A stretch of 64,000 nucleotides of DNA from an archaeon (GTDB lineage Archaea > Nanobdellota > Nanobdellia > Woesearchaeales > GW2011-AR9): positions 81,937 to 145,936 of the forward strand of contig JAHFQW010000001.1 in assembly GCA_023259115.1 (NCBI GenBank), written 5' to 3'. This document shows, piece after piece, positions 3,001-64,000 of the stretch. How positions within the stretch are numbered: the stretch's first letter is position 1; each line of letters begins with the position of its first letter. A model generated the notes under the pieces. It did no database searches, was not told where the DNA came from, and saw only the letters and a program-made list of their open reading frames with translations. The position numbers and the translations under genes are program-made.

Positions 3001-3331
3001 TGCGATGTGTGATGAATTGGATGGTTTACTTACATGCAAGTATTTCTTTGGGGAGTTGTGGTATATTTTACCGTTCTCACAATTCTATGATAAAACGATA
3101 AAAGCGTTATGGGATGTGTTTCGTGGACCAATTGAAATTATTCGTAATGCAAATATTGTTGGGTGTGGATTATTATGTGCATATAGTCCTTCGGGTGCTA
3201 CTTTCTGTTCTTATACTACTTATTTTTGGCAAGTTATAGATTACATTGAGAGCATGGTTGGGTTTATTACGACAGTGAAAAATGATATACAAGCAGGCGG
3301 GCTACAGTATTGTGATTCGGTGGGGTTGTAG
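59..3331 (+). CDS. Giant secreted/surface protein (1090 aa) with N-terminal signal peptide and Cys-rich C-terminal region
   Basis: Long uninterrupted ORF. N-terminus MGLFVMFLFVVMPLTSASA is a signal-peptide-like hydrophobic stretch. C-terminal ~250 aa is rich in Cys. No recognisable catalytic motif. Confidence 0.5.
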   Translation: MMQEQIRKCMGLFVMFLFVVMPLTSASAMAVSVQITKNTGEANVPEVIDAQGDVWRVEALITGLGAAEGSGGGNGSTINAQDVHMKIGENEESFTSCSSSPLGILCQYASPLQNGVAQGTYTFTVLYNMFKDVSGSGANPSATGVVAADGSGPSVSTPSVVMAGEGKIHVDFTVNDLPVDKNAGLKSVEILDADSGVVLFSVSSFENGKDTFSFANDGGTKGIVSVPWKDEGLKRIKVRAVDRLGHVTASPPVVSFMVDYVKPVILDSTLEFSSLGKFMGSVIVSSDISIDINEKNLKKDSVIAYSDQAGLSGQSAQCDVLAGKEIWHCVWKKVEIKPVESISIKIAAEDESGNVVEKVISKSFTKDTSAPVVTFFGLEQQFEDRSYYPATGGERKLVLQVKEQGAGMSIDGVRANLKAFGRGITEMPENCSAVEGTFSCYWMVNKQFGSDDVVHVGLSKFVDGVGNEGKASDIEIVVDKAVPKVVKAEFYGVSDVGDKEYFQSNDKIKLKLTIAEENGIAVLVNMNDLVMDAQNQFPVNSYTQGLADEAGWQLFTPDLCVRDKEKKQWTCELLTTSLRSGPDSDVAFDVLVVDTAGNVATWDVAPKHVKTGSKGKGNFKIDLLGVSSESTPDYWEVSSVKAQGGDSAFIDLDTTSLTYTRLPFEVDLSHKLGSAKALNMEMIGCEPKGGAGGLAFNANKTTVASPTVSRALLYGGKSAIGVDNPKPIVVLEFEPFDGRKMFSLPSEGEFEKKLVEYECSIKIYSAVGSSALKSAEIQKVSVKVPFAFSTLGANDENLDALVKQAKEDVNSGVLQIGRLQKYMKWIDYGVQTVMLVKGVEQLYSNARSVLEAPTQWPPSKAGSITACFGFTSAEASTEKGISYLDQILQVLTCRGTEAGLGWYGAWQETILKLYNVEMLRAPDPGRPSFGAPARDIKENLYLSMAGLCVPGIIKNVDKYRQIKCRKVYCLQNEVKAGSATVAMCDELDGLLTCKYFFGELWYILPFSQFYDKTIKALWDVFRGPIEIIRNANIVGCGLLCAYSPSGATFCSYTTYFWQVIDYIESMVGFITTVKNDIQAGGLQYCDSVGL

Positions 3332-4167
3332 TGGAATTTGGTGGGTTAAAGAAAATGATTGAAAAAGTTGCGAAACATAAGCAGTATGATGGACTTATTA
3401 AAGAAGTTGGTGTTTTGTTAGAGGAAGCACGAAAAAATGTGTATTATCAGGTTAACCAGATTCTTGTTAAAACGTATTGGGAGATTGGGAAGAGAATTGT
3501 GCAGTTTGAACAGCAGGGCAATAAAAAAGCTGAATATGGAGACAAAATTTTAGATACGTTGGCCGTTGATTTAAAATTAAATTATGGGAAAGGTTTTAGT
3601 AGAAGCAATGTTTATTCGATGCGTTTGTTTTATCTTAAGTATACAAAAATCCAGACAGTGTCTGGAAAATTAAGTTGGTCACATTATTGTGAACTTCTCA
3701 GTGTGTCTGATGATTTAGCTCGGGGTTTTTATGAAAAACAATGTTTAATGGAGAATTGGAGTATAAGAGAGTTGAATCGTCAGATTAATTCTATGCTTTT
3801 TGAGAGAATTGCTTTGAGCAAGGATAAGAAAGAAGTTTTAAAGCTTTCTTATAAAGGGCAAGTTATAGAATCGGAGTATGATATCATTAAAGATCCTTAT
3901 GTTCTTGAATTTCTCAAGATTCCTGAAAATTCTAAGTATAGCGAAAAAGAACTCGAACAAAAGATTATTGATAATTTACAGTTATTTTTATTAGAGTTAG
4001 GAAAAGGTTTTACGTTTGTGGCACGGCAATTTAGACTGACTTTGAATAATAGTCATTATTATGTTGATTTGGTTTTTTATCATCGAATTTTGCGTTGGGT
4101 GGTATTTCCAATAAATTGTTTGTTTCACGATATAAGTTGTATTTGCCTTCCAAAGAGGAGTTGGTGA
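3331..4167 (+). pseudogene. DUF1016/YhcG-like PD-(D/E)XK nuclease family protein, C-terminal catalytic core apparently disrupted
   Basis: N-terminal region (KTYWEIGKRIVQFEQQGNKKAEYGDKIL...GKGFSRSNVYSMRLFY...LSWSHYCELL) matches the YhcG/DUF1016 N-terminal domain pattern. After YVDLVFYHRIL the expected E-x-K core is missing. A YhcG-like C-terminal tail (LYLPSKEELVREIQKLI) is readable in another frame at ~4125-4190, suggesting a deletion or frameshift. Confidence 0.45.
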
Positions 4168-9057: not shown

Positions 9058-9447
9058 ATGGATATACAGAAAATCGTACAAAAAATATTAAAATTGGATA
9101 CAAAGAAAAAAGTGAAGTTCATAGTTCTTTTTGGGAGTGTGGCGAGAGGAGAGCATACCCCCCTTTCTGATATTGATTTTGCGGTGTATTATGATGGAAA
9201 AGTAGATGAACGATTTCGATTTCGTATCAAATTATTGGGTTTATTGCCAGATAGAGCTGATGTTCAGATGTTTCAAGATTTACCGTTGGCAGTACAAAAA
9301 GAGGTTATCAAAGGAAAAGTAGTATATTCAAATAATTTTCAGTTTGTGTTTGACTCGTTTATGAACGTTATCAAAGAGTTTAGTACGTTTGAAAAGTATT
9401 ATAATCGCGCTTTGGAAGAATTACGTAAAGAAGTGGGTGTGGTATGA
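9058..9447 (+). CDS. Minimal nucleotidyltransferase (MNT, antitoxin-type, Pol-beta superfamily)
   Basis: Motif LFGSVARGEHTPLSDIDFAV, i.e. GS-x9-13-D-x-D of Pol-beta-type NTases. 4-nt overlap with the downstream HEPN gene. Confidence 0.75.
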   Translation: MDIQKIVQKILKLDTKKKVKFIVLFGSVARGEHTPLSDIDFAVYYDGKVDERFRFRIKLLGLLPDRADVQMFQDLPLAVQKEVIKGKVVYSNNFQFVFDSFMNVIKEFSTFEKYYNRALEELRKEVGVV

Positions 9448-9866
9448 ATTTTAAAGATCGTATTATTTTGAAACTGCAAGAGATGAATAGGTACTTGCGT
9501 GATTTGGAAGAACTGCTGCCAGAGGATAAGAAAATTTATCTTATGAATCTCATGCAGCGAAGAGCATGTGAGAAGACAATAGAATTGGCAATTGAGGCGG
9601 TTATTGATATTGTGGCAATGATTGTTTCATATGAGAAATTAGGTGTGCCTGAGAGTGAGGATGATTTGATTAATTTCTTAGCAAAGAAAACGATTTTAAC
9701 ACAAAGAGTAAGAAACACCATACCTAAAATGAAAGGGTTTCGTAATATTTTAGTGCATAAATATGGCGAAATTGATAATGGTTTAGTTTATATGTTTTTA
9801 TCGGAGAAATTGGATGATTTTTATGAATTTGAAAAAGAGATTAAACGATATTTACAAAGAAACTAA
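9444..9866 (+). CDS. HEPN-domain protein (DUF86/HepT-like toxin)
   Basis: R-x4-H motif (FRNILVHKY) near the C-terminus. Paired with the upstream MNT in the classic MNT-HEPN operon arrangement. Confidence 0.7.
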   Translation: MNFKDRIILKLQEMNRYLRDLEELLPEDKKIYLMNLMQRRACEKTIELAIEAVIDIVAMIVSYEKLGVPESEDDLINFLAKKTILTQRVRNTIPKMKGFRNILVHKYGEIDNGLVYMFLSEKLDDFYEFEKEIKRYLQRN

Positions 9867-28046: not shown

Positions 28047-28050
28047 AGGT

Positions 28051-28096
28051 ATAGATAACTGCGCAAGTTATATCACATTTGGCGCAGTTATCTAAT
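28051..28096 (+). repeat. Intergenic hairpin repeat, TAGATAA-stem/ACATTTG-loop/TTATCTAATA family
   Basis: ATAGATAACTGCGC-aagttatatcacatttg-GCGCAGTTATCTAATA forms a 12-bp perfect stem. Lies 5 nt after the gpmI stop. Confidence 0.55.
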
Positions 28097-28099
28097 ACA

Positions 28100-28460
28100 A
28101 GAAAATAAATAAACGATTTATTTTCCACAAGACAAAACCGCGATTTTGTCTGTGCACAAATAGGATAGTTTTCCTATTTTGTGTGTACAGAAATACGATC
28201 GTTTTCGTATTTCTTGTAAGTAAACTGCGTGCATAATGTAGTGAAATTCGCAAGAAATGGAACAAAATGTTGCGAATTTCAATATATAAATGAGTTTGAA
28301 TAACTATATCCGATTCAATGAAAATGCAAAAACCATTTTCAAGAGTAAAAATCACCTCAAGTGTTCAAATAGGCAAGTGATTTTTACTTGTCAAACTCAT
28401 TTAAGAAGAACTTTGAATTGATAAAATAAAATATTATTCAAAGTTCTCTATAAAAATTGC
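28100..28460 (+). repeat. Array of at least 6 consecutive unrelated perfect hairpins (stems 7-11 bp) in a 650-nt intergenic region
   Basis: GACAAAA/TTTTGTC. AAATAGGA/TCCTATTT. AGAAATACGA/TCGTATTTCT. GAAATTCGCAA/TTGCGAATTTC. GTAAAAATCAC/GTGATTTTTAC. GAACTTTGAA/TTCAAAGTTC. Confidence 0.5.
28344..28389 (+). repeat. AGTAAAAATC...GATTTTTACT hairpin repeat (copy 2)
   Basis: AGTAAAAATCAC-loop-GTGATTTTTACT, an 11-bp stem. Related to 19926-19987. Confidence 0.45.
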
Positions 28461-28742
28461 CTGGAATGTTCGATTTCTAGGGTAATTTACTATATGATAT
28501 TTGCTGTAAATAGGATTTGCTACAAGTAACGCAGTTTACTATAATATTGTTTAAATGTTTTGCGGTTTTCGGGAAGTTTCTTATTGATTACTATCAAGTG
28601 ATTATTTTTAAGAAAGATTTATAAATGCAGCTTATTTTTGAGGGGATATGGTTTCCGCTCAGTTAATGATAGTACAGTTGTATGTGGTGGTAGAAGAATA
28701 TTTAGGACTGGAAAATGAGAATGTTATTGTTACGAGGATATT

Positions 28743-32795: not shown

Positions 32796-34157
32796 TTAGA
32801 GTTTATATCCTAGAGTTTTTACTGCGTTCATAAAAGGGATTTTTGTGTTTTCATCAATTAATCCTTCATCTTGGAACCATCTTAATGACTCGCGTCCGTT
32901 TCCCTGATGTCCAAGGCATAAGAAAAATATTTCTTTTGTTTTCTCATCGCGTGAAGAAATGGAGCTCTGGTAACTTTGTTTAATGTTAATTCTCTTAGTG
33001 AGGGTGTTTATACCAATGAGATCTTGCAGAGCGAGACTACGGAATCCATACACTTCTTTTTCAAATTCACAGAAGAGGGGTGTGTAATATAAAATGGCTT
33101 GGCTCATCTGTTTTTGTTCTCTAGGAGAACAGTTATTTGCTTCAAATTCAAATAGTGAGTTTAGTATTTCTATAAAATTATCTAGAGGCATACTTCTTTT
33201 TTGTTCTAGGGTCATGTGATAGGCAATTTTATGTATTGCTCTTTGGTATTCTCCTCCTAGGTTCCAACTCCCTCTATTAAATTTTGCATCAAATAAACGG
33301 AGACCATATTGTTGTTCGGTGGGTGATGTTGTAAATTCATCTTTTTCTAATATGGTTCCTACGGTGGGTGCAACAAGATCATTGACAATTCTCTCGGAAA
33401 AATCTACGATGTTATGCCCCATAGATCTTGTGTGTTGATACATAATTCGGGCATATTCGAATAGTGCGGGGTTAGAGAGTATTATTTCAGCAAAAGGTAA
33501 TTTTTCTAATGCTTGGGCAAAATCTTGATAGATCTCTTTACCATCCAGTTGTTTTCTGAGGATCCATTCTGCATATTCTAATGCCTCTTTTTTTGAAGCT
33601 GATTTAATGGTGTAATGGTTTTGTGAGAGAAGGGTAGAATTTGGACGTGAAGTGAGTAATATACGATTTTGGTTTAGTGTTTTTTGAATGAAATCTAGGG
33701 TTTGTTGCCGAGATTTTACATCAAATATTTCATCTAGTCCATCGAGAATGATGAGGGGGTCTTTTTGTTCTACGAGTTGTTGATATTTTTGAGGTTGTTC
33801 ATCAAGAATAGACAAAGTGACTTTAGAGAGATGGTCATATAATTCTGGAAGAGATTGAATAGAGGCGAAGTGTTCATCAAGACGGATGAAGAGAGGTGTT
33901 ACTTTGTGTTGAAAGGGAGAATATCCTTCCTGTGCTTGGTACGCAAGATGTTTTGCGACAACGCTTTTGCCTGAGCCACCATCACCAACTAAAATGTTAA
34001 TGCCGGTTTCAATTAATTTTTCTTCATTTACTTCATTTTTTGCTGTATCTTGGAGTATTGGCTTAAGAAAAGGCATGCATTTGCCAAGATAGAGGGGATG
34101 AGGAACACTTTTGTATTGTTGTGCTAATAAACTTAATTTTAGTTCGAGTTGTTGCAT
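32796..34157 (-). CDS. NACHT-type STAND P-loop NTPase
   Basis: Walker A GDGGSGKS. Walker B hhhhDGLDE (LIILDGLDE). Downstream LLTSRP sensor-like motif. ~250 aa C-terminal helical region. No recognisable N-terminal effector domain. Confidence 0.55.
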   Translation of the reverse strand: MQQLELKLSLLAQQYKSVPHPLYLGKCMPFLKPILQDTAKNEVNEEKLIETGINILVGDGGSGKSVVAKHLAYQAQEGYSPFQHKVTPLFIRLDEHFASIQSLPELYDHLSKVTLSILDEQPQKYQQLVEQKDPLIILDGLDEIFDVKSRQQTLDFIQKTLNQNRILLTSRPNSTLLSQNHYTIKSASKKEALEYAEWILRKQLDGKEIYQDFAQALEKLPFAEIILSNPALFEYARIMYQHTRSMGHNIVDFSERIVNDLVAPTVGTILEKDEFTTSPTEQQYGLRLFDAKFNRGSWNLGGEYQRAIHKIAYHMTLEQKRSMPLDNFIEILNSLFEFEANNCSPREQKQMSQAILYYTPLFCEFEKEVYGFRSLALQDLIGINTLTKRINIKQSYQSSISSRDEKTKEIFFLCLGHQGNGRESLRWFQDEGLIDENTKIPFMNAVKTLGYKL

Positions 34158-40329: not shown

Positions 40330-40470
40330 TATAGTAATGGTGAATAGTTTTCGAATTCGAGTCACTCCGTTCGTGACTTTGCTAAAGCAAAGCTTTGTTC
40401 ACCATTACTAATAAGTAAATGTGTAGATTAATATTCGATTATTTTACACATTTACTATATTATTCAGTAT
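40330..40470 (+). terminator. Nested palindromic structure in intergenic region (AGTAATGGTGAA...TTCACCATTACT enclosing AGTCAC...GTGACT and TTTGCTAAAGCAAA. Then TAAATGTGTA...TACACATTTA)
   Basis: Multiple perfect inverted repeats read directly from sequence downstream of the FAD-oxidoreductase gene. Confidence 0.35.
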
Positions 40471-41389: not shown

Positions 41390-42253
41390 TTGTTTCTTGC
41401 TCTTATGAGAAGAGGATGTTTATGGTTACTGGGGTTATTGCTGTTTATAGTGGGATGTAGTTCTATTCATAATTATTTGAATAGTTCTCTTGATAAAAAT
41501 ACTTTTGTTGTGAATGATTCAGTGGCAAGTTCTGTAATTTCTGCGGGTGATGTTTCTACGAGGAATGTTTCGGTTAATGAAACGCAGATTACTACGCAGA
41601 TTACTATTAAAGAGAGTATAGATAATTCTGTGGGTTATAATACATTTTGTACAGAATTATCTAATAAGACAATTCTGAATAGTTGTCATATAAGTAACAG
41701 AATTGTCTATAATATTACTGTTTGTTCTGCGCAATGGGTTTGTTTGAACTCAAAGACGAAAATATATAGGGTACAAAATTGTAGTTTTACGCAACGAGTG
41801 GATTGCAAGTTTGGGTGTAAGAATGATTCTTGTGCGATTGCACCAGTATGCAAGGCGGGGTGGAATTGTGATGGAAACTATTATCGTGGGTATCGAATGG
41901 AGAGTTGTGAATTTATAAAGAGGGAAAAATGTGAGTTTGGTTGTAGAGAGGGTGATTGTTCGGTTGAGGTTGTTGAAAATACATCAACAATTATTGTTAA
42001 AACGGGAGTGGAGGAGGCAAGGCCGGCGTTGGCAACGCTTAATTCTGGTGATATGGTCTTGTTGAAGAATCATAATGTGACTATTTATACGATGACGGAT
42101 GAACAAGTAATTCTGATTATCGATGGGAGGAAAAGCAATCTACTCAAGGAAGGTGAGAGTGTTACGCGTGATGATTTGACGATTGTGGTGGAAGAGATTT
42201 TATTTCAAGCGTATGGGGAAGGAAAGAAGATGATTAGTTATACGGTTACATGA
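41390..42253 (+). CDS. Secreted Cys-rich protein carrying the 97-nt in-frame repeat element
   Basis: N-terminal hydrophobic signal/lipobox-like segment (LWLLGLLLFIVGCSS). More than 20 Cys. Contains IDNSVGYNTFCTELSNKTILNSCHISNRIVYN encoded by the repeat at 41617-41713. Confidence 0.5.
   Translation: MFLALMRRGCLWLLGLLLFIVGCSSIHNYLNSSLDKNTFVVNDSVASSVISAGDVSTRNVSVNETQITTQITIKESIDNSVGYNTFCTELSNKTILNSCHISNRIVYNITVCSAQWVCLNSKTKIYRVQNCSFTQRVDCKFGCKNDSCAIAPVCKAGWNCDGNYYRGYRMESCEFIKREKCEFGCREGDCSVEVVENTSTIIVKTGVEEARPALATLNSGDMVLLKNHNVTIYTMTDEQVILIIDGRKSNLLKEGESVTRDDLTIVVEEILFQAYGEGKKMISYTVT
41617..41713 (+). mobile_element. 97-nt AT-rich palindromic repeat element, copy A (in frame inside 41390..42253)
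   Basis: Over 95% nucleotide identity with 48623-48719 and 57203-57299 while flanks are unrelated. Internal inverted repeats CAGAATT/AATTCTG and GACAATTCTG/CAGAATTGTC. GC far below the host gene. Confidence 0.6.
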
Positions 42254-43435: not shown

Positions 43436-43487
43436 TATAGATAATTCTGCAGATTAGATTACATTTGGCAGAATTATCTAATATAAC
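43436..43487 (+). repeat. Intergenic hairpin repeat, same family
   Basis: TATAGATAATTCTGC-agattagattacatttg-GCAGAATTATCTAATATAAC. Flanks and loop are conserved. Stem hexamer is changed with compensating change relative to the 28051 copy. Confidence 0.55.
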
Positions 43488-43594
43488 GAAGGACACAAAT
43501 AATCAATAAAATAGTTGTGTCCTTCGAATATAGTAAGTGATATTTGTATAAATATTTAGGTCACTTACTATAAGTAAATTCTGTCGATAATGAT

Positions 43595-43642
43595 TATCAA
43601 ATATAATACCAAAAATTAGCATAATTAACAGAATTTACTATA
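43595..43642 (+). repeat. Module-2 repeat (TATCAAATATAATACCAAAAATTAGCATAATTAACAGAATTTACTATA)
   Basis: ~90% identical to 63694-63740. Abuts the stop of the 43625..44548 minus-strand gene. Confidence 0.5.
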
Positions 43643-45123: not shown

Positions 45124-45221
45124 TAGCGGGGGGTGGACTTTCAGAGTTCTTGTGAACTTATTTGAACCACCGACCTATGGGTTATGAGCCCATCGGGCAC
45201 TCCGAGCTACCCTACCCCGCT
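45124..45221 (-). tRNA. Initiator tRNA-Met (anticodon CAT) with a 23-nt insertion immediately after the T-loop
   Basis: Hand-folded on the minus strand: AGCGGGG-TA-GGGT-AGCTCGGAGT-GCCC-G-ATGGG-CTCATAA-CCCAT-AGGTC-GGTGG-TTCAAAT-[AAGTTCACAAGAACTCTGAAAGT]-CCACC-CCCCGCT-A. A1:U72 and three G:C pairs at 29-31:39-41 are initiator hallmarks. Perfect acceptor, anticodon and T stems. Confidence 0.65.
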
Positions 45222-48140: not shown

Positions 48141-51100
48141 TTGGTTGTTGAGAGCGGTTTTGCGATGAAGAAGGTGGTTTTATTATTGTTGGTACTCTTG
48201 GTTTCTTTTTCTATTGTGTATGCTGCTGATGTGCATGTTGATGCGAAGGTGCAGGAGGCGTTGGTGCATGGTTCAAATGCGTCGGTGATTGTGGTGCTCA
48301 AGCATTCTTCAAGTGCCGTGGCTGATTTAGGTTTAGAGAGTGCAGGGGCTGATGATGAGATGGTTGCTTCTGTTGGTGGTGGTGATGGTAGTAATAGATT
48401 TAGGGGTTTGAGAGGCACTCGCGTTTTAAAAGAGGTGGAATTACGTGAGGAGCGTCAAAAACAGGAAGCGAGAGTTGTAGAAGAAAATGTACTTGGGGGG
48501 TTACGAGTGCGAGAAGAGGGGATAGTGAAAAACTCGATGAATAACTCAGTGACAAATTTAGTGACAAACTCAGAGAAAAGTTTGGGGAATAGTTCAGGGT
48601 TGGATGTTGAGGATGTAGTTAGTATAGATGATTCTGTGGGTTATAATACATTTTGTACAGAATTATCTAATAAGACAATTCTGAATAGTTGTCATATCAG
48701 TAACAGAATTGTCTATAATGATACTTATGATATTGCGCTACGTACACGATATAATTTATTTAATGGATTTAGCGGTGATGTGACGGCAGAGGGATTGAAA
48801 AAATTGCAGGAAAATTCACAAGTTGAGAGTGTGTATCTGGATGAGGAGCGGCATGTGTTTTTAACGGATTCGGTGCCGCAGATTAATGCAAATAAAGTGT
48901 GGAATTTTTCGCTGAGTCATTATAATATTACAGGTGTTGGGGAAACGGTGTGTGTGGTTGATACGGGTATCAATTATAGCCATAGTGGATTAGGTGGAGG
49001 ATTAGGTATTCGAGTGATTGATGGATATGATTTTGTGAATTCAGATACAGATCCGGCAGATGATCATGGCCATGGTACGCATGTGGCAGGAATTATTGGT
49101 TCAAATGATAGTGTGTATAGAGGTGTTGCACCGGGAGTTAAATTTGTGGCGTTGAAAGCGTGTAATTCAGGTGGCTCATGTAGTGATTCTAATGTGTTGT
49201 CAAGTATTAGTTGGTGTATTGATAATTCAACTATCTATAATATCTCGGTGATTAGTATTAGTTTAGGCGGGGGTCAATATACGAGTTATTGCGACAATGA
49301 TGTGAATTCGCAGTATCATTCGTTGATTGGTCAGGCGGTAGGGAAGAATATCAGTGTGGTTATTGCAACGGGGAATACGGGAAGCACGTATACCAATAAT
49401 ACAGGAGGTATTGCGGCGCCGGCGTGTATCCAGAATGCGACACGAGTAAGTGCGGTGGATAAATCGGATGTGATGGCGAGTTATGCGTTTCGGCATTTTA
49501 ATTTTACAGATATTATTGCAGCGCCCGGGAGTTCTATTACGTCGTTATCGTATACAGGTGGAACGACGACGTTATCGGGTACATCGATGTCGACACCGCA
49601 TGTGTCAGGAGCTGTTGCGTTGATGCGGCAGTATTGGCGATTAGCATATACGCAGACGCCGTCGGTTAGTTTTGTGACAAATAAGATTCTCAAGACGGGA
49701 GTTTCTATTGATGATACGGGAAGTGGATCTACGTTGATAATTCCTCGTGTTAATATATTGGCGTTGCTACAGCCATTCATTAATTATACCACGACGAGCG
49801 TGGTAAATGGATCGGTGCGTAATGTGAATACGGCGTTGATTAACATTAGTTCAGATGTGAATTTAAGCTCTGCGTTGTTGGAGTGGCATTATAATAATGG
49901 GACGATTCGCAATATTTCGATGAGTTCTTTTAATGGTACGAGTTATTCTTTAACGCTTGGCAATTTGGCGGATGGGACGGATTTTTATGAGGTATATGGG
50001 AATGATACCGCGAATACGTTTGGGCAAATAAGTATTCGTAATATTACCGTTGATGCAACGGTGCCGGCAGTTACGGTTGTAAATCCAGCGAATGGCACAA
50101 ATATGAGTAGTGGTAGCGCAGCGTTTAATGCGACGGTTTTGGAGAAGAATATTGATAGTGTATTATTTAGTTTTGATAATGTGACGGGAAGCGGGGTGGC
50201 GTTTAATGTGACGGCAACGAATAGCAGCGGCAATTGGAATGCGAATGTGGATTTGACGCGGTTGAAGGAAGGTAGGCATGTGATGAATGTACTGGCAAAT
50301 GATACGGCAGGGAATTATAATAGGTCTTCAATTGTGCAATTTGTGGTGGATAGAACGGCGCCGAATGTGACGGTTATTATACCGTTTTCTAATCGTAATT
50401 TCACGTTGAGTTCAGGCAATCAGACGTTTAATGTTTCATTGCGGGAGAGTTTGTTAACGGTAGATTCAGTTATTTTTAGTTTTGATAATGCGAGTGGTGT
50501 GAATTTTAATGTGACGGCGCAGAATAATTCAGGGTATTGGGCTGTATCTTATAATGTGTCGAGTTTAGCTGAAGGGAGCCATACGATGACGGTGCTTGCT
50601 AATGATACGGTGGGGAATTATAATCGGACGGTAAATGTATCGTTTACGGTGGATTTTACGGTGCCAAGTGTGACGTTGAATGCGCCGAGCGCGGGAGTAG
50701 TGTTTACAATAGTATCTAGCAACCAGACGTTTAATGCAACGATTCGCGATGGTGTTAGCGGGGTGCGTGATGTGGTATTTAGTTTTGCTAATTCTACTAC
50801 GGGGTTTAATGTGACGGCGCAGAATAATTCAGGCTATTGGATTGTTTCATATAATGTTTCTACGTTGGGACATGGCAGTCATAGTATAGTGGTGTTTGCT
50901 AATGATTCAGCGGGTAATATGAATACGACAAGTTCGGTGAGTTTTACAGTGGATTTAGATACACCTCTGGCGATTTTAAATAGTCCGGTGGATTTTTTTA
51001 ATTCTTCTACGGCATTACTGGTGTTTAATTGTTCTACTTTGGATAATACCAGTTTGTTGAATGTGACGTTGTATGGAAATTGGAGCAGTGGCTGGCATGG

Positions 51101-52016
51101 GAATGTGACGACATCTATTTCGGGGAGAAATAATGAGACGACGTTTAGTCGTACACTGCTTGATGGGACATATAGGTGGAGTTGTTTAGCAGGTGATGGG
51201 CAGGGTAATGTAGGGTTTGCGAGCAGTAATTATACGATTACAGTGGATACAGTATATCCGTTGATTACGTCTGTGAGTTCGGGAAGTCCCACTTCATCTG
51301 CGGCGACAATTACGTGGACGACAAGTGAGGGGGGGAATGCGAGTGTGGATTATGGTGTAGATACGTCTTTAGGTTCGCGCAGCTCGAGTTTGACGTTTAG
51401 TACTTCGCATAGTGTGGGGTTGTCTGGCTTGACTGCTTCAACTACGTATTATTATAATGTGACGAGTTGTGATGCTTCGGGGAATTGTAATACGACTGGT
51501 ATGAATTCTTTTACGACAGCGTCTTCTGGTGGAAGTGGCAGTAGTAGTTCTTCGTCTGGTGGCGGTGGCGGAGGAGGAGGCGGGGGTGGAGGTGGTGGTG
51601 GTTCTTCGAGTAAGATTGCAGCGGCTGTTACAACAACACCTGTCAAAATTGAAACTCCTGTTGCAAAAGAACCTAGTGCGCCAGCAGCAGAGAGCGGGGG
51701 AGCTGGAGCTGCAGTGAGTGTGCTTTCAGATGGTGGAAGTAGCAGGGGAGAGAGCAAGAATGAGATAGCTGCGGCGTTAGGGCAAGATAAAGGTTCGACT
51801 AATTTGGCAGGAAATGCTGCGAGTGTGGGTCAGAGTTCTACGAGTTCACGTTTGGCGCTAGCAGGAAGGGCGTTCTTTCAGAGCGGAGTACAATTATTTA
51901 AGAATAAAGTAGTATTAGGTGTGATGGTTGTAATTGTGGGATTATTGATTATTATTTTATCTTTATTGTCCTGGAGAAGAAAGAATGAAGTGGCGAAGCA
52001 GGGGTTTGGGTTTTGA
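48141..52016 (+). CDS. Subtilisin-like serine protease (S8) with long N-glycosylation-sequon-rich Ig-like tandem repeats, poly-Gly and Thr/Pro linker and C-terminal TM anchor
   Basis: Catalytic triad blocks VCVVDTGIN (Asp), HGHGTHVAGII (His), GTSMSTPHVSGA (Ser). N-terminal signal peptide. At least 3 tandem ~85-aa repeats (FNVTAQNNSGYW...VLANDT.GNYN...FTVD). GGGGGGGGGGGGGGG tract. C-terminal hydrophobic helix plus RRKN tail. Contains the 97-nt repeat at 48623-48719. Confidence 0.8.
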   Translation: MVVESGFAMKKVVLLLLVLLVSFSIVYAADVHVDAKVQEALVHGSNASVIVVLKHSSSAVADLGLESAGADDEMVASVGGGDGSNRFRGLRGTRVLKEVELREERQKQEARVVEENVLGGLRVREEGIVKNSMNNSVTNLVTNSEKSLGNSSGLDVEDVVSIDDSVGYNTFCTELSNKTILNSCHISNRIVYNDTYDIALRTRYNLFNGFSGDVTAEGLKKLQENSQVESVYLDEERHVFLTDSVPQINANKVWNFSLSHYNITGVGETVCVVDTGINYSHSGLGGGLGIRVIDGYDFVNSDTDPADDHGHGTHVAGIIGSNDSVYRGVAPGVKFVALKACNSGGSCSDSNVLSSISWCIDNSTIYNISVISISLGGGQYTSYCDNDVNSQYHSLIGQAVGKNISVVIATGNTGSTYTNNTGGIAAPACIQNATRVSAVDKSDVMASYAFRHFNFTDIIAAPGSSITSLSYTGGTTTLSGTSMSTPHVSGAVALMRQYWRLAYTQTPSVSFVTNKILKTGVSIDDTGSGSTLIIPRVNILALLQPFINYTTTSVVNGSVRNVNTALINISSDVNLSSALLEWHYNNGTIRNISMSSFNGTSYSLTLGNLADGTDFYEVYGNDTANTFGQISIRNITVDATVPAVTVVNPANGTNMSSGSAAFNATVLEKNIDSVLFSFDNVTGSGVAFNVTATNSSGNWNANVDLTRLKEGRHVMNVLANDTAGNYNRSSIVQFVVDRTAPNVTVIIPFSNRNFTLSSGNQTFNVSLRESLLTVDSVIFSFDNASGVNFNVTAQNNSGYWAVSYNVSSLAEGSHTMTVLANDTVGNYNRTVNVSFTVDFTVPSVTLNAPSAGVVFTIVSSNQTFNATIRDGVSGVRDVVFSFANSTTGFNVTAQNNSGYWIVSYNVSTLGHGSHSIVVFANDSAGNMNTTSSVSFTVDLDTPLAILNSPVDFFNSSTALLVFNCSTLDNTSLLNVTLYGNWSSGWHGNVTTSISGRNNETTFSRTLLDGTYRWSCLAGDGQGNVGFASSNYTITVDTVYPLITSVSSGSPTSSAATITWTTSEGGNASVDYGVDTSLGSRSSSLTFSTSHSVGLSGLTASTTYYYNVTSCDASGNCNTTGMNSFTTASSGGSGSSSSSSGGGGGGGGGGGGGGGSSSKIAAAVTTTPVKIETPVAKEPSAPAAESGGAGAAVSVLSDGGSSRGESKNEIAAALGQDKGSTNLAGNAASVGQSSTSSRLALAGRAFFQSGVQLFKNKVVLGVMVVIVGLLIIILSLLSWRRKNEVAKQGFGF
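48623..48719 (+). mobile_element. 97-nt palindromic repeat element, copy B (in frame inside subtilase 48141..52016)
   Basis: See copy A. Confidence 0.6.
51556..51603 (+). repeat. GGN microsatellite encoding a poly-Gly tract inside the subtilase gene
   Basis: GGTGGCGGTGGCGGAGGAGGAGGCGGGGGTGGAGGTGGTGGTGGT encodes 15 consecutive Gly. Confidence 0.6.
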
Positions 52017-54470: not shown

Positions 54471-57400
54471 GTGGTGGCTATGGGAACGGGTGGACGGAAT
54501 CATCGTTTTATTATTACGGGGTTTGTGTTAGTGTTTGCGCTCTTTGCGGTGGTGCTATATCATGAGTCTACAACTTCTTCACTTGATGTGACGGGATATG
54601 TTATTTTAGAGGATGGAGTGAGAGTGAGTACGCAGAAGATGGATAGTTCTTTGGTTACAGAGATTAGAGGGGGAGATGTGACGCCTAAAGTGGTGGTGGT
54701 CTTAGATGAGAGTGCAAGTGTGAATACTGATGGTGTAGGTGGTGGGAAAAGTCAGCAAGAATTTATTGATCAATTAAAACAAAATATTGTTGTGTCGGAT
54801 TCTTCTTCTGCGAGGAGTGGTGTTGAGGATGTGAAGAAAATAAGCAGTAGTGGGAGTAGTGGGGTTGATGGCAGTTCAGATTTTGCGTTGACACATACAT
54901 TTAGTTCTGTCTCAGCGATTGCAGGGGAAGTTACAAGTGCAGATGGGTTAGTTGAGCTGACTAAAAACAAACATGTTAGAAAAATTTTGTTAGATTATCC
55001 GGTGAGTGTGAATTTGGATAAAAGTGCATTACACATTAATGCGCCTCGTGTGTGGAATGTGACGTTGAATGGCTCAAGTGTTGATGGCCGAGGGGGGGCT
55101 GTGTGTATTATTGATACGGGTGTTGATTATGCGCATGCGGCGCTAGGTGGATGTAGTGCTGCAACGATGCAGTTGAATGGGGCAGTTGAGATGCTTTCTG
55201 TACCGGTTGAGTCAAGTCATCCGTATAGTGATACTATGGATCAGACATGGGTTATACAGCGTGAAGGATTTGAACATATGGCGCTGCATTTTTCTAAGAT
55301 TGAATTAGAGCAGATATCAAGTGCGGGGGATACGACGGATAGGGTATATGTTTATGATTCACAAAATAGGACAGTTGCTGTCTACAAAGGTATTTCAAAT
55401 GATATGTGGACGCCTTCGGTTCTAGGGGATATGATGTATGTGCGTTTGGTGTCAGATGGTTCGGTGAGTGGGTATGGATTTTCTGTTGATTCTATAATTA
55501 ATGGAACGACGAATGTGACGATGGATTGGAGCGGATGTTCTAAAGTTGTGGGGGGATATGATGTGTATAATAATGATGCGAATCCTCAAGATGATCATGG
55601 CCATGGTACGCATGTGGCGGGTATTATCGGTTCAACGGATTTGACATATAGGGGGATTGCACCAGGGGCAAACATTGTGGCATTGAAGGCGATGAGTGGT
55701 TCGGGGAGCGGTTATTCGTCTGATGTGTTGGCGGCAATGGAGTGGTGTACGAAAAATAAAGAAAAGTTTGGTATTTCGGTTATTAGTATGAGTTTAGGGT
55801 GTGATGGAGGGAGTTGTCCGCATTATCAGACTTATTGTTCGGATGATATTTTAGCAAGTGCGGTTGCAGGGGCGATTGCTAAAAATATTAGTGTGGTTGT
55901 GGCGGCAGGGAATTCAGGCTGGGTGGATGGGATTTCAAGTCCGGCGTGTATCAATGGCGTGATTCCAGTTGGTGGGGTGAATAGTGCGGATGAAATTTTG
56001 TTTAACCGTGGGAAATTGTTGCGATTGCTTGCGCCAGCGCAAGGTATTACGTCGGCAAAGTTAGCAGGGGGATTTGTGGCGTTGAGTGGTACGTCGATGG
56101 CAACTCCGCATGTTGCAGGGGCAATTTTGTTGTTGCAGGATTATGCAAAACGTGTGTATGGGCGGGAATTGACATCGGCAGAGGTGAATGTGAAGTTAAT
56201 TGAGAGTGGGAAGAAGGTGTATGATAGTAGGGTGGGGTTGAATTTTTCACGTATTGATGTATTTGCGGCAATTGGTGGAGCTGAGGGTTTGAGTGGTGTT
56301 AATAAAAATGTGTCAAATAGTTCAGCGGTTATTTTGAATGAAACAGAAAGAATTGGTGATTTAAGTTTGATTGTACTCCCTGTGAATAATAGTTATGTTT
56401 CTACTCTGTTGAATGTGAGTGTTGCTGCTCGTAGTAATGTGTCGTTGTATGGGGTGTGGTATAGTGTTTCTGGAGATAATGGGAGTGTGTTGTTGAATAA
56501 TTCAATGGTGTGGGATGTGTCGGGTGCTACTAGTTCTGTTGAGAATTATACTCTTTTTGATTCTGTTGTTGTGTCTGGTTGGAGGGAGGGGAGTTATACT
56601 TTAGCAAGTTATGTGATTGATAGGGAAGGAAAAGAGGTGTTTGTGTTTTCTACTTTTAATGTGGATAGAACATTTCCTCGTGTTGGGAATGTAGATTATA
56701 TGCCTGTTTTACTATATACAAATACGAGTGCGTTGTTTACGGTTATTGTGAATGAGAGTTCTATTGATTCTACTTTGGTTAAATTGTGGTATACGGTTAA
56801 TGGGAGTGATTGGCAGAGTGGGGTTATGAGTAAGGATATGAGTGGACGAACTTGGGGAAGTGGTGCGGGAAGTGAGGTGTATACGTATTCATTGAATTTG
56901 ACGCAGTTTGCACCAAATAGTGTGTTGCAATTTTATGTTTCAGGGAGTGATTTGGCGGGTAATGTGAATACGAGTGCGATGGGGAATGTGACGATATATG
57001 AGGGGGTGAATGCGGTTGTGGTGCCGCCGGTGAATGCGGGTGCTGCTGTGCTTACTATTACGTCTCCTTTGAATGGGTCGGTTGTTGAGGTTGGCAGTGT
57101 TATTTCTTATACTGGTGTGGTTGAGAATTTGAATGTGTCACGTGTGTTTTGGAATTTTTCTAGTGGGGGGAGTGATACTGTTTTGAGTGGTGTTACGCAG
57201 TTTATAGATAATTCTGTGGGGTATAATACCTTTTGTACAGAATTATCTAATAAGACAATTCTGAATAGTTGTTATATAAGTAACAGAATTGTCTATAATA
57301 AGACGGGAATTGTTGTGATGCAAGTATGGGTGAATGCAACAGAGGGACAATTTGCAGTGAATACAACTGTTGTTGTGAATGATACAACTGCTCCAAAAAT

Positions 57401-58076
57401 TGAGATGATGAGTTTTGCAAAAGAGATTCATCTTGGTAAAGTTAAGAGTCAACAAGTGAATGTGAGTGTGTTTGATTATTCAGGGATTTCGGCTTTAACG
57501 CTGGGGCTCAATGGAGTATTAGAGAATGGGGTGTGTTCAAAAGAGAGTAGTCGCTGGAGTTGCGGGTGGAATATGTCGAATTTGAGTTTGGGGAATGCAA
57601 CGTTAATGTTGACTGTTGCGGATGGGGCGAGTGTGGTGCATACTAATCTGACAAATTATACGTTTGTGGTGCAATCCTGTAGTGATTTTATACAAAATGG
57701 GGATGAGGCGGGAGTTGATTGTGATGGTTCTTGTGGTGCTTGTAATGGAAGTGTATCAAGTGCTAATGTGAGTGCGGTGATTGAGGCAACGCCTGTGGCT
57801 GCTGCGGTGGCAGATGTTGCTCAGTCTACGCCTGTGGTAGTGGCAGCACCTGTTGATTCTACTGTGGTGAATAAGGCAGAAGGAGTAGTACCGGTTCAGA
57901 CGGCTTCTGTGAAGAATCAGGAAGTTGGGCAGAGTGCGGATAAAAAAGAAGTTGCAAGTGCGAGTGTGGTGCAAGCAACGGATGAGAGTCAGAAAGAGGG
58001 AGTGTTGTATGTGCTAGGTTTACTGGTTGTGGTATTGAGTGGGTTGTATGTGTTTATGATGCGGGAAGGTCTGTGA
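54471..58076 (+). CDS. Second subtilisin-like serine protease (S8) with sequon-rich extracellular domains and C-terminal TM anchor
   Basis: VCIIDTGVD, HGHGTHVAGIIGS and GTSMATPHVAGA catalytic blocks. N-terminal TM/signal anchor. C-terminal Ala/Val/Pro-rich linker plus hydrophobic helix (LYVLGLLVVVLSGLYVFMM). Contains the 97-nt repeat at 57203-57299. Confidence 0.8.
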   Translation: MVAMGTGGRNHRFIITGFVLVFALFAVVLYHESTTSSLDVTGYVILEDGVRVSTQKMDSSLVTEIRGGDVTPKVVVVLDESASVNTDGVGGGKSQQEFIDQLKQNIVVSDSSSARSGVEDVKKISSSGSSGVDGSSDFALTHTFSSVSAIAGEVTSADGLVELTKNKHVRKILLDYPVSVNLDKSALHINAPRVWNVTLNGSSVDGRGGAVCIIDTGVDYAHAALGGCSAATMQLNGAVEMLSVPVESSHPYSDTMDQTWVIQREGFEHMALHFSKIELEQISSAGDTTDRVYVYDSQNRTVAVYKGISNDMWTPSVLGDMMYVRLVSDGSVSGYGFSVDSIINGTTNVTMDWSGCSKVVGGYDVYNNDANPQDDHGHGTHVAGIIGSTDLTYRGIAPGANIVALKAMSGSGSGYSSDVLAAMEWCTKNKEKFGISVISMSLGCDGGSCPHYQTYCSDDILASAVAGAIAKNISVVVAAGNSGWVDGISSPACINGVIPVGGVNSADEILFNRGKLLRLLAPAQGITSAKLAGGFVALSGTSMATPHVAGAILLLQDYAKRVYGRELTSAEVNVKLIESGKKVYDSRVGLNFSRIDVFAAIGGAEGLSGVNKNVSNSSAVILNETERIGDLSLIVLPVNNSYVSTLLNVSVAARSNVSLYGVWYSVSGDNGSVLLNNSMVWDVSGATSSVENYTLFDSVVVSGWREGSYTLASYVIDREGKEVFVFSTFNVDRTFPRVGNVDYMPVLLYTNTSALFTVIVNESSIDSTLVKLWYTVNGSDWQSGVMSKDMSGRTWGSGAGSEVYTYSLNLTQFAPNSVLQFYVSGSDLAGNVNTSAMGNVTIYEGVNAVVVPPVNAGAAVLTITSPLNGSVVEVGSVISYTGVVENLNVSRVFWNFSSGGSDTVLSGVTQFIDNSVGYNTFCTELSNKTILNSCYISNRIVYNKTGIVVMQVWVNATEGQFAVNTTVVVNDTTAPKIEMMSFAKEIHLGKVKSQQVNVSVFDYSGISALTLGLNGVLENGVCSKESSRWSCGWNMSNLSLGNATLMLTVADGASVVHTNLTNYTFVVQSCSDFIQNGDEAGVDCDGSCGACNGSVSSANVSAVIEATPVAAAVADVAQSTPVVVAAPVDSTVVNKAEGVVPVQTASVKNQEVGQSADKKEVASASVVQATDESQKEGVLYVLGLLVVVLSGLYVFMMREGL
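57203..57299 (+). mobile_element. 97-nt palindromic repeat element, copy C (in frame inside subtilase 54471..58076)
   Basis: See copy A. Confidence 0.6.
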
Positions 58077-61483: not shown

Positions 61484-61690
61484 ATGTCTACGACAATACA
61501 GGTTAATGACGATACGATGATTTTTTTGAAGAAGTTACGGTTGCAGTACGAGGCGTCTTCGTATGATGCATTGTTACAAATTCTGGTTAAAAAAGATTTG
61601 AAGCCAAAAAAGTCGTTATGGGGTGCGGGAGGGAAGATGACGATGAAAGAGATTCTGTCGGATTTGAGGGATAAACATGACCGATACTAA
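61484..61690 (+). CDS. VapB-like antitoxin (small DNA-binding partner of a PIN toxin)
   Basis: 68-aa ORF overlapping the downstream PIN gene by 14 nt. Typical TA operon architecture. Confidence 0.45.
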   Translation: MSTTIQVNDDTMIFLKKLRLQYEASSYDALLQILVKKDLKPKKSLWGAGGKMTMKEILSDLRDKHDRY

Positions 61691-62069
61691 CTCTGGAGCG
61701 GTGTCTAGGATTATTTGTCTTGATTCTTCTGCGTGGCTGGCGTATTATTTTGCTGAGAATAATGAGGTTAAAGAAATCGTTGATGGTTCTGTGCTTGTGA
61801 TGACTTCTTCATTATGTCTATTTGAGGTAAAGAAACGATTGTTAATTTTGAAAAAAGATTTTAAAGTGCTGCTTGATTTTATTAAACAGCGCGGGGAAAT
61901 AGTTTTTCCGGATGTGGTTATTGTGGAGAGAGCGGCGGAGTTTGCAGTGGAGAAGAAATTGGGAGCGATGGATGCGTTGATTTATGCAACGAGTGTTAGT
62001 TGTAGAGCGAAATTGATTAGCGGGGATAATGATTTTCGTGGTTTGGAGGGAGTGAGGATTATTTCTTGA
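61677..62069 (+). CDS. PIN-domain VapC-like toxin
   Basis: IICLDSSAWLAY (first Asp). ...MDALIYATSV... and C-terminal GDNDF acidic residues fit PIN. ~130 aa. Confidence 0.55.
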   Translation: MTDTNSGAVSRIICLDSSAWLAYYFAENNEVKEIVDGSVLVMTSSLCLFEVKKRLLILKKDFKVLLDFIKQRGEIVFPDVVIVERAAEFAVEKKLGAMDALIYATSVSCRAKLISGDNDFRGLEGVRIIS

Positions 62070-63347: not shown

Positions 63348-63668
63348 GTTTTTTTCTATTTAAGTTTCACTCCTCATATCTATCTCCTTCACAGCAGGGT
63401 TTGATGTGGTGGCAGTTATTATAGAGGGGTTTGATTAACCATCTAAAATTCCTCAAACCCCTCTAAGAAGTATACCAACGAACCTAATTTTTAATTAAAG
63501 TAGTTATGTTCGTTGTACAAGAAAACAAACAACGATTTGTTTTCTGTACAGAAAATAAGTTGTTTCTTATTTTCTTGTATATACAAAAGCACTAACTATT
63601 TTTGGAATTAATTAGTGCTTTTGGTATACTTTGAATAATTGATGAAAATAGGGTTATTCAAAGTCCTC

Positions 63669-63740
63669 TATAGATAATTCTGCTGATTAGATTATCAGAT
63701 ATAATACAAAAAATTAGCCTAATTAACAGAATTTACTATA
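63669..63740 (+). repeat. Composite intergenic repeat: TAGATAATTCTGC module fused to the module-2 repeat (...AATTAACAGAATTTACTATA)
   Basis: The 5' part matches 43436-43450. The 3' part matches 43595-43642 at ~90%. Confidence 0.5.
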
Positions 63741-63876
63741 CAGATGTATTTCTGTTTGATTGGTTCCATTTCGTGCTGGCATTGTTCGCAGAGGAGGGGC
63801 ATAGATAGTATATTTTCTTTGAGAATTAAAATGTTACGACAGCTTTTTATAGTATTGTGAGGCTCTAGGTGTTTAT

Positions 63877-64000
63877 GGGCGCGTGGCTCAACGGTACTTT
63901 GTTCATATAATCTGGATAAGGCGAAAAAGAGCGCTTCGTTCGCAACGAAGAGGTTTCGGGTTCAAATAGATACAATCAATAAGGTTGTTTGAGAAAGTCC
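63877..64000 (+). tRNA. Candidate tRNA (anticodon CGC, Ala-like) with 32-nt D-loop intron, truncated by window end (probably a further insertion after the T-loop)
   Basis: GGGCGCG-TG-GCTC-AACGGTA-[32 nt]-GAGC-G-CTTCG-TTCGCAA-CGAAG-AGGTT-TCGGG-TTCAAAT-... Perfect D, anticodon and 5' T-stem pairing once the 63897-63928 insertion is removed. 3' T-stem and acceptor strand not found before the window ends. Confidence 0.45.

Follow-up and report, generated by a model that had tools for sequence, protein, structure and literature searches.

The window analyzed here is a 64,000-nt stretch of contig JAHFQW010000001.1 (assembly GCA_023259115.1, positions 81,937 to 145,936) from an archaeon of the Woesearchaeales, and three of its protein-coding genes carry a near-identical palindromic element. 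Most probably, this is a small mobile element that is non-autonomous and codes for no transposase, belongs to a family of hairpin repeats of DPANN archaea, and has been inserted in frame in the manner of the Rickettsia palindromic elements (RPE). The element has exact empty sites, is bounded by TA at both junctions, leaves the reading frames of its hosts intact, and is a member of a repeat family. In the scenario that we propose, the family normally resides between genes, mostly at their 3′ ends, in Woesearchaeota, Pacearchaeota, and Nanoarchaeia, and one young subfamily would have entered TA dinucleotides inside at least three, and probably four, protein genes. Each such insertion adds 93 nt, or 31 codons, and insertions out of frame or in another orientation would break the gene. 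The insert would be tolerated since it is located in a lipoprotein linker, a propeptide linker, and the strand edge of an immunoglobulin (Ig)/PKD-like domain.

Three genes of the window carry the element in frame

When the window was searched with the two halves of the 97-mer delimited by the initial annotation, both halves were found at exactly three sites (41617, 48623, and 57203), all on the plus strand and with 0-2 mismatches per half; shuffled sequence gave 0 matches. MAFFT alignment of the copies with 300 nt on either side confined the near-identity to the element, with sharp edges and unrelated flanks. Among the three copies, which lie within 16 kb on the same strand, pairwise comparison counted 2, 3, and 5 substitutions. 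The near-identity initially reported, at 3-5 substitutions, was thereby upheld, as were the AT-richness relative to the hosts (GC content of 0.237, or 23.7%, versus 0.37-0.43 in the host genes) and the internal inverted repeats, the RNA fold of the element being a strong hairpin (dG −33.6 kcal/mol, z −4.9). The repeat itself is real, but its unit measured 95 nt rather than 97 nt and consists of TA, 91 nt, and TA (TA-TAGAT...GTCTA-TA). Compared with homologs, the net insertion is 93 nt (31 codons), made up of the 91-nt body and one TA. The last AT of the 97-mer belongs to the host, where it finishes an AAT Asn codon that is conserved in homologs of all three hosts.

One phase is shared by all three copies, as had been noted, and reads I(D)(N/D)SVGYNTFCTELSNKTILNSC(H/Y)ISNRIVY; the peptide read from the copies in this single phase is IDNSVGYNTFCTELSNKTILNSCHISNRIVY. 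The 31-aa segment contains two Cys residues and one NKT sequon. On their two sides, the copies have 77 and 180 (copy 1), 167 and 1099 (copy 2), or 920 and 259 (copy 3) codons. The three hosts had also been described as unrelated. Two of them are in fact paralogous S8 subtilases, yet their insertion sites are not homologous, one lying in the propeptide linker and the other in the C-terminal Ig/PKD-like domain. The coordinates of the copies, their hosts, and related repeats are given in Table 1.

Table 1. Copies of the element, host genes, and intergenic relatives in the window
Feature	Position	Strand	Description
Host gene 1	41405..42253	+	Cys-rich secreted/lipoprotein-like protein, 282/287 aa, lipobox-like N-terminus; 190 homologs
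Copy 1	41617..41711	+	In frame in gene 1; linker between lipobox and Cys-rich domain; covariance model score 95.8 bits
Copy 1, hairpin 1	41619-41663		
Copy 1, hairpin 2	41667-41708		
Host gene 2 (subtilase 1)	48162..52016	+	S8 subtilase, I9 propeptide, Ig-like repeats, C-terminal transmembrane segment
Copy 2	48623..48717	+	In frame in subtilase 1; variable linker of I9 propeptide, upstream of S8 domain
Host gene 3 (subtilase 2)	54480..58076	+	S8 subtilase, CUB-like insert, C-terminal transmembrane segment; identical to P0001 (100% identity)
Copy 3	57203..57297	+	C-terminal Ig/PKD-like domain of subtilase 2, in frame, the conserved (F/Y)NxTG motif following immediately
Intergenic composite relative	43436..43642	+	207 nt; 5′ hairpin TATAGATAATTCTG..., hairpin-2-type 3′ end ...CAGAATTTACTATA
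Internal-deletion derivative	63669..63740	+	72 nt; intergenic, same two termini as the 43436-43642 element; within hairpin nest 63420-63740
Intergenic nest	28050..28543	+	CTGCG-core hairpin 1, matching hairpin-2 3′ end ...CGCAGTTTACTATA, many nested modules ending CTATA
Weak intergenic relative	40383..40459	+	Hairpin-2-like stem AGTAAATGTGTAG...CACATTTACT; 24.5 bits, E 0.03

Homologous genes provide exact empty sites

The comparison with orthologs that the initial annotation had proposed gave a clear result: homologs, including two syntenic orthologs, precisely lack the segment, and none of the homologs of any host carries it. For gene 3, an exact 31-column gap was found at the element in nine homologs (38-52% identity, conserved on both sides), with ...GVTQ[FIDNSV...NRIV]YNKTG in the window protein aligned to, for example, ...GEKL-FNSTG. 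Excising 93 nt from gene 3 yields CAG TTT AAT AAG ACG (QFNKTG) and restores the conserved FNxTG motif. For genes 1 and 2, the empty sites were provided by a groundwater metagenome contig (L104; 71-75% nucleotide identity), which is syntenic with the window and free of the element throughout. Its gene order is archease, the gene-1 ortholog (934-1683, without the element), UDG, further genes, an S49 peptidase, the gene-2 ortholog (P0122), and the gene-3 ortholog, which ends with the contig before the insertion site. In blastn comparison of the window with L104, alignments resumed at 41711 and 48716, which are the 3′ ends of the element. Gene 1 reads ...ITIKES[31 aa]NITVCSAQW in the window and ...SIKSKIENKTICVAEW in L104; gene 2 reads ...DVVS[31 aa]NDTYDIAL in the window and ...ESVVNDSYDIAL (...SVV/NDSYDIAL) in P0122.

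Comparison of each position with that 93 nt downstream (41616-41619 against 41709-41712) limited any target duplication to TA at most. The empty sites hold a single TA, and the filled sites have TA on both sides, in gene 3, in the L104 comparison, and in a second filled/empty pair from another genome. In this second pair, a related 128-nt hairpin element sits at the linker TA of a canonical element, changing TTATC/TA/ATAG to TTATC/TA...TA/ATAG. The same insertions were reproduced in independent assemblies from different samples, and homologs align on both sides of each site; because independent assemblies repeat them, the insertions are not an assembly artifact.

The fourth copy and the single open reading frame

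An exhaustive HMMER protein search with gene 1 retrieved two proteins, P0001 (subtilase 2) and P0364, via the element peptide alone. P0364 is a 217-aa hypothetical open reading frame (ORF) that carries the element in the same frame, 98.9% identical to copy 1 and with TG instead of TA as its 5′ flank. Its contig differs from that of the window and was found in the same sample, in a second sample, and in an NCBI record. A query with a 41-aa peptide gave no matches, a negative that is unreliable because the query missed the peptide-bearing P0001. This genome thus contains at least three in-frame insertions and probably a fourth, and identity among the copies of this subfamily is 95-99%.

Stop codons occur in five of the six frames of the subfamily. 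The copies share one phase because only one orientation and phase is stop-free and keeps the gene intact; without selection, the chance that four of four copies would occupy this frame is about (1/6)^4. The presence of all four in the sole open frame therefore argues that constraint acts at translation, and against removal of the element at the RNA level. The same frame is open in 23 of 71 distinct family members, nearly all of them intergenic; this is close to chance expectation, the conserved stems being stop-free in that frame. A special "coding adaptation" of the open frame was rejected, given that mostly intergenic members are open likewise and about as often as expected.

Seven substitutions distinguish the four copies, three synonymous and four non-synonymous. 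Six fell in loops or in the flanking TA, and the only one in a stem (A to G) kept a G.T pair. The dN/dS check that the initial annotation had advised thus found no sign of purifying selection on the peptide. A variable repeat of a diversity-generating retroelement was also considered and rejected: the substitutions are few and without adenine bias, and neither a template repeat nor a reverse transcriptase is present.

The element belongs to a repeat family of DPANN archaea

A degenerate hairpin pattern was run against a collection of species-representative genomes, and a narrower pattern against metagenomes, with the outer TA and hairpin 2 left unconstrained. The patterns found 82 loci in genomes and 13 in metagenomes (about 95 in total), in both orientations; together with the intergenic copies in the window, these loci supply the additional copies that the initial annotation had suggested counting. 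Nearly all genome loci came from metagenome-assembled genomes of Woesearchaeota, Pacearchaeota, or Nanoarchaeia, with several copies per genome and 5-8 in several genomes. Viral contigs contained no copy and gave no sign of a viral origin. A profile search yielded 81 full-length copies. Among the 62 copies with complete ends and enough flank, 43 were exactly 95 nt long and all 62 started with TATAGATAA and ended with ATA (TATAG...ATA); the sequence outside TA...TA was unconstrained. The composition of the flanks was mirror-symmetric (C-poor at −1/−2, G-poor at +1/+2), and positions −1 to −3 were not specific.

The family consists of two similar tandem hairpins, TAGATAA-core-loop-core′-TTATCTA and, after a short linker, (G)ACAA/GTAAA-core-loop-core′-TT(G/T)(T/A)C-TA. 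The 5-nt stem core (CTGCG, TTCTG, or TTGCG) is usually common to both hairpins of an element and varies by genome, and copies within a genome are nearly identical. The ends form terminal inverted repeats: TATAGATAATTCTG agrees with the reverse-complemented 3′ end, TATAGACAATTCTG, in 13 of 14 positions, and family-wide the terminus TATAGATAAYTSYG matches its 3′ counterpart at 12-13 of 14.

No full-length copy in the other genomes and metagenomes lay demonstrably inside a long ORF. The best genic candidates outside the window had about 23 codons on the shorter side (31 for one partial copy), and two of the loci concerned, L046 and L043, are cut off by the locus end; L046 (JACPBN01) may hold a further, near-C-terminal genic copy where it is cut off. 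Intergenic copies favored gene 3′ ends (27 convergent, 23 tandem, and 6 divergent regions) and showed no preferred orientation relative to the adjacent gene (39:38). Several of them overlap the end of the upstream ORF (−8 to −3 nt), where a TAG or TAA of the element serves as the stop codon of that gene. Rfam gave no match in the window at gathering threshold and nothing over the elements at E ≤ 1, only chance miRNA-like hairpin matches, and no account of elements like these in DPANN turned up in the literature searches.

Intergenic relatives form hairpin nests in the window

A repeat scan of the window picked out intergenic relatives with the termini of the element, which the initial annotation had not noted. 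When a covariance model of the element was run over the window with filters off, full-length matches were found only at the three genic copies, and weaker matches were found in four intergenic nests (Table 1). The diverged copy at 28050 shows compensatory stem changes (TAGATAACTGCGC...GCGCAGTTATCTA), and the composite at 43436-43642 has two extra TA-bounded single-hairpin modules nested in its linker. All four nests (28050-28543, 43436-43642, 63420-63740, and 40383-40459) contain varied short modules, mostly TA-bounded and ending CTATA or ACTATA, and these look as if they had inserted into each other. Units with a single hairpin, about 40-45 nt long, seem able to move independently and recall REP singlets and doublets.

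Extension beyond the window via flanking proteins retrieved only short contigs that ended near repeat nests. In several samples, contigs assembled from short reads of this population (L083, L099-L103), compared with the window at 49885, about 63240, and 3331-4167, likewise end near nests; one such end lies some 420 nt past the Spt5 gene, just before the 63420-63740 nest. These repeats probably fragment short-read assemblies. Upstream of the PIN gene, contig L099 departs from the window and has small ORFs in place of the UDG gene.

Hairpin covariation and strand bias

Covariation was assessed in 40 diverse copies under two structure models. The two-hairpin model paired 93.4% of cells, with 12 pairs changed on both sides and a covariation score of 0.397; the corresponding values for one long hairpin were 85.5%, 6 pairs, and 0.228. 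The single long hairpin was rejected on these scores as the family-wide fold, though it is feasible for the subfamily of the window. Hairpin 2 covaries at 52/96, 54/94, and 55/93, where it differs from hairpin 1, and because it does so the internal arms must be kept complementary to the terminal arms.

The orientation of the element was also compared with local GC skew. Over all copies, the ratio of G-rich to C-rich strand was 60:30 (P 0.002), rising to 36:7 (P about 9e-6) among copies with strong local skew (absolute value above 0.1). The strongly skewed copies were divided 19:7 at genome loci (P 0.029), 11:0 at metagenome loci (P 0.001), some of which are the same site sampled twice, and 4:0 in the window plus locus L084 (P 0.125). 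At loci where the plus strand has the same skew in genes of both strands, the orientation was 17:3, and orientation did not follow the direction of the flanking gene (48:42). At L084, the sign of the skew is constant across genes of both orientations, which therefore points to a strand asymmetry of the replication type and not to a coding-strand effect. Very strong skew was also seen in the window between 38000 and 60000, with a G-rich plus strand (0.3-0.6 per 200 nt). The strand bias is only suggestive.

Among the neighbors of the copies, SpoIIM, metallophosphoesterase, MNT nucleotidyltransferase, and DUF1016/YhcG nuclease genes recur, with at most 4 members each. A gene for a DUF1016_N and YhcG PD-(D/E)XK nuclease is present at 3331-4167 of the window, at 2870-3871 of L002, and at 6220-7098 of L019; its four occurrences are not clearly above chance.

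Host proteins and other features of the window

The insertion sites are plausibly permissive, being a lipoprotein linker, a propeptide linker, and the strand edge of an Ig/PKD-like domain. In an AlphaFold2 model of the subtilase 2 domain with the insert, the Ig/PKD-like domain was confident (pLDDT 80-93), and the displaced host strand together with the first 19 inserted residues was disordered (pLDDT <50). The C-terminal SCYISNRIV of the insert was modeled as the strand preceding YNKTG and built into the host beta-sheet, so that the insert's own ...RIVY would mimic the displaced ...TQF. The product of gene 1 had no match in Pfam, and exact look-ups with two alternative start codons found it not to be on record. 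The best homologs were in metagenome-assembled genomes of Woesearchaeota and Nanoarchaeota. Subtilase 1 also contains three tandem units of about 300 nt at 50202-50929, 67-75% identical, that correspond to repeated Ig-like (Big_13/Big_3_3) domains.

Archaeal housekeeping genes of the window include those for archease, Spt5-NGN adjoining SecE, the small primase subunit, and an Rpb3-like subunit. Genes of the defense or toxin type comprise an MNT nucleotidyltransferase and HepT pair, a NACHT/STAND NTPase, and a PIN-domain protein beside SecE and Spt5 (9058-9866, 32796-34157, and 61677-62069). Automated searches called no tRNA in the 64 kb. A tRNA-Met (CAT) gene, missed by ARAGORN and Rfam, lies at 45125-45220 on the minus strand and has a 23-nt insertion in the T-loop, GGTGGTTCAAAT[AAGTTCACAAGAACTCTGAAAGT]CCACC; with the insertion it folds as a cloverleaf with an extra T-loop stem. 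The same tRNA-Met without the insertion is found at 4143-4230 of L104, at 88% identity, which is above that of the surrounding genes. At 63876-63965 on the plus strand, a tRNA-like start (GGGCGCGTGGCTCAACGGTA...) and end (...GGTTTCGGGTTCAAAT) enclose extra sequence and may represent another tRNA with a non-canonical insertion.

Alternative explanations

The initial annotation had read the element as an RPE-like selfish repeat inserted in frame, and the additional intergenic copies, the exact empty sites, and the ratio of three synonymous to four non-synonymous substitutions support that reading. Several observations weigh against it or against parts of it. Pfam identified no transposase in 40 ORFs of the window, no autonomous element was found among pairs of hairpin 1 and hairpin 2 lying 120-6000 nt apart in the loci, and no transposase recurred as a neighbor in clusters of 500 ORFs near the approximately 95 copies. 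With one vote per genome, the strand bias is 15:10 and not significant, and for the replication strand local skew is no more than a proxy. The TA...TA arrangement fits a true duplication of the target and an insertion 3′ of TA by a TA-ending element alike, and does not tell the two apart. The fourth host, P0364, is a hypothetical ORF with no match in Pfam, and translation of the insert as a 31-aa loop is inferred from the reading frames. Furthermore, all four known subfamily copies lie in ORFs (the fourth found by a protein search, which is biased to genic copies), AT follows all four (P about 0.0015), and the three window sites directly precede an N-x-T sequon, versus 12.6% of in-phase T|A sites (P about 0.001-0.002). 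Random insertion followed by a frame filter does not fully explain this genic, AT, and sequon pattern. The genic positions and the sequons, with three hosts being secreted or surface proteins and AlphaFold2 placing the C-terminal segment of the insert in a host beta-sheet, could be taken to mean that the in-gene copies are domesticated, the 31-aa segment being kept or targeted to diversify or decorate surface proteins at glycosylated loops. We consider domestication quite improbable: the substitutions show no purifying selection on the peptide, the segment is in no homolog of any host, and the frame in question is open in intergenic members roughly as often as chance predicts. Glycosylation sites mark exposed loops, so tolerance suffices for the site bias and is its simplest reading, and the sample is small, with its fourth member coming from a search biased to genic copies.

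How a mobile element of this kind would move is a separate matter. Covarying hairpins and an orientation that tracks GC skew favor a mechanism that recognizes hairpins in single-stranded DNA, and by analogy with IS200/IS605-PATE or REP-RAYT systems we lean, with little more than tentative confidence, toward replication-coupled, hairpin-dependent insertion 3′ of TA. A DDE cut-and-paste transposase of the IS630/Tc1-mariner type, acting on 14-nt terminal inverted repeats and duplicating TA, would instead make the same element a MITE, a transposable element of the miniature inverted-repeat type, like Stowaway, RUP, or Correia. It would account for the TA that flanks all full copies on both sides, though the pattern did not demand it; for a duplication of at most TA, with a single TA in the empty sites of gene 3 and of the nested pair; and for termini that match at 12-13 of 14 positions within mirror-symmetric flanks. 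An enzyme binding double-stranded terminal repeats would not need internal arms that covary with the terminal arms even where the two ends differ, nor would it predict an orientation biased relative to strand skew, and neither the window nor the surroundings of the approximately 95 copies showed an IS630-like gene; we place DDE transposition second in likelihood, as possible but doubtful. Much less probable still is that the element is removed from the RNA, as an intron-like segment with a bulge-helix-bulge motif, or skipped by translational bypass, leaving proteins without the 31 aa. The element does form a strong hairpin, the genome has non-canonical tRNA insertions such as that in tRNA-Met at 45125-45220, and taking out 93 nt would restore the ancestral frame exactly. 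A spliced or bypassed segment, however, would have no need of the only stop-free frame and orientation in which all four copies lie. The outer stem runs unbroken for about 15 bp, and the junctions do not show the two 3-nt bulges, separated by a 4-bp helix, of bulge-helix-bulge geometry; members of the family mostly lie between genes, and Rfam yielded no match. The initial annotation had itself offered gene conversion of a shared protein module, or an mRNA localization signal, as alternatives. That the copies are near-identical, within 16 kb, and on one strand might suggest spread of such a module or signal by conversion, or an assembly artifact at a repeat. Against this, no flanking homology could drive conversion, the edges are the termini of an otherwise non-coding repeat family present in dozens of genomes, members of the family lie between genes without a preferred orientation with respect to them, the insertions recur in independent assemblies of different samples, and homologs align continuously across both sides of each site, which makes this explanation the least credible of all.

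Relation to known mobile elements

RPE are reportedly short palindromic elements of Rickettsia described by Ogata et al. in 2000. The phenomenon has been summarized in a review (PMC10969869). In common with RPE, the present element is short, palindromic, and free of a transposase, is found in frame in unrelated protein genes and also in non-coding copies, and would be translated into an additional peptide at sites that are permissive and surface-exposed. The features of the phenomenon are all seen here: insertion in frame into an ORF, absence from orthologs, and an intact host ORF. RPE are alphaproteobacterial and about 100-150 bp long, whereas this element is from DPANN, measures 95 nt, and is built of two hairpins in a defined arrangement, with TA at each junction; the great majority of its family lies between genes, with genic copies observed in a single genome, whereas RPE-1 is often found within genes. 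Given the host lineage and the sequence, homology to RPE-1 to RPE-10 is unlikely.

Bacterial MITEs that duplicate TA include the RUP elements of Streptococcus pneumoniae, linked to IS630-Spn1, and the Correia elements of Neisseria. These share with the present family a length of about 100-150 nt, the lack of coding capacity, terminal inverted repeats, TA insertion with apparent TA duplication, many copies mostly at gene ends, and the ability to fold as hairpins. As expected of a MITE, the present element is short, has no transposase coding and one short open frame without a Pfam match, and occurs as dispersed copies with conserved termini. It differs in that no partner IS630-type transposase was found in the window or the loci, in that each half is an independently maintained hairpin, and in that orientation tracks strand skew; to our knowledge, neither of the latter two features has been described for RUP or Correia elements.

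Among archaeal elements, the palindrome-associated transposable elements (PATEs) and SMR-A repeats of Haloquadratum walsbyi (PMC3119063) likewise lack a transposase and measure about 100 nt or more. The palindromes of PATEs are near-terminal, alike at both ends, and derived from IS200/IS605-type ends (PMC3119063). The present family resembles them in having, on one strand, a sub-terminal hairpin at each end; the two are similar, share a core, and are each maintained by covariation. It also resembles them in its mutual nesting and internal-deletion derivatives, as in the nests and in the element at 63669-63740 compared with that at 43436-43642. PATEs, however, are defined by the absence of terminal inverted repeats and target duplications and by insertion 3′ of a specific 4-5-nt target, whereas here the ends read as inverted repeats flanked by TA...TA and the target is apparently only TA. 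No IS605-type element (tnpA and/or tnpB) with these hairpins was found in the window or loci, and, unlike in IS608, the hairpin foot is only 2-3 nt from the end of the element. Repetitive extragenic palindromic (REP) elements and REPINs are mobilized by RAYT tyrosine transposases (PMC3733652). They are likewise small palindromic units that occur singly and as doublets, extragenic and in high copy number, with genome-specific sequence variants and conservation at the level of structure. REPs are bacterial, GC-rich, and arranged as inverted doublets with a GTAG or CGTC tag, whereas the hairpins described here are tandem and AT-rich with the ends TATAG/CTATA, and no RAYT-like or Y1 transposase gene was detected in the window ORFs or among the neighbors of the copies. 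The element lacks, or leaves undecided, at least one defining feature of each of the MITE (RUP, Correia) and PATE/SMR classes. These comparisons support a new archaeal family of a known kind, which functionally represents the RPE phenomenon in an archaeon.

Implications

The genomes of DPANN archaea are very small, and mobile elements are presumed to be few in them; the present data describe an abundant 95-nt mobile hairpin family across Woesearchaeota and Pacearchaeota. Hairpin covariation, the TA target, and the strand bias together give a concrete search image for the missing transposase. A bolder proposal, which we think unlikely, is that DPANN archaea have their own single-strand, replication-coupled system of hairpin transposition, possibly with a non-canonical enzyme, and that an ORF-compatible subfamily prefers, or is retained at, the N-glycosylation sequons of surface-protein genes; if true, it would be a natural generator of new Cys-containing cell-surface loops in an episymbiotic archaeon with a minimal genome. 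The elements could also serve as strain markers in population metagenomics. With its exact empty sites, the element may be the first clean archaeal case of RPE-style in-frame insertion, and it opens the birth of new protein segments from selfish DNA to study in archaeal surface proteases.

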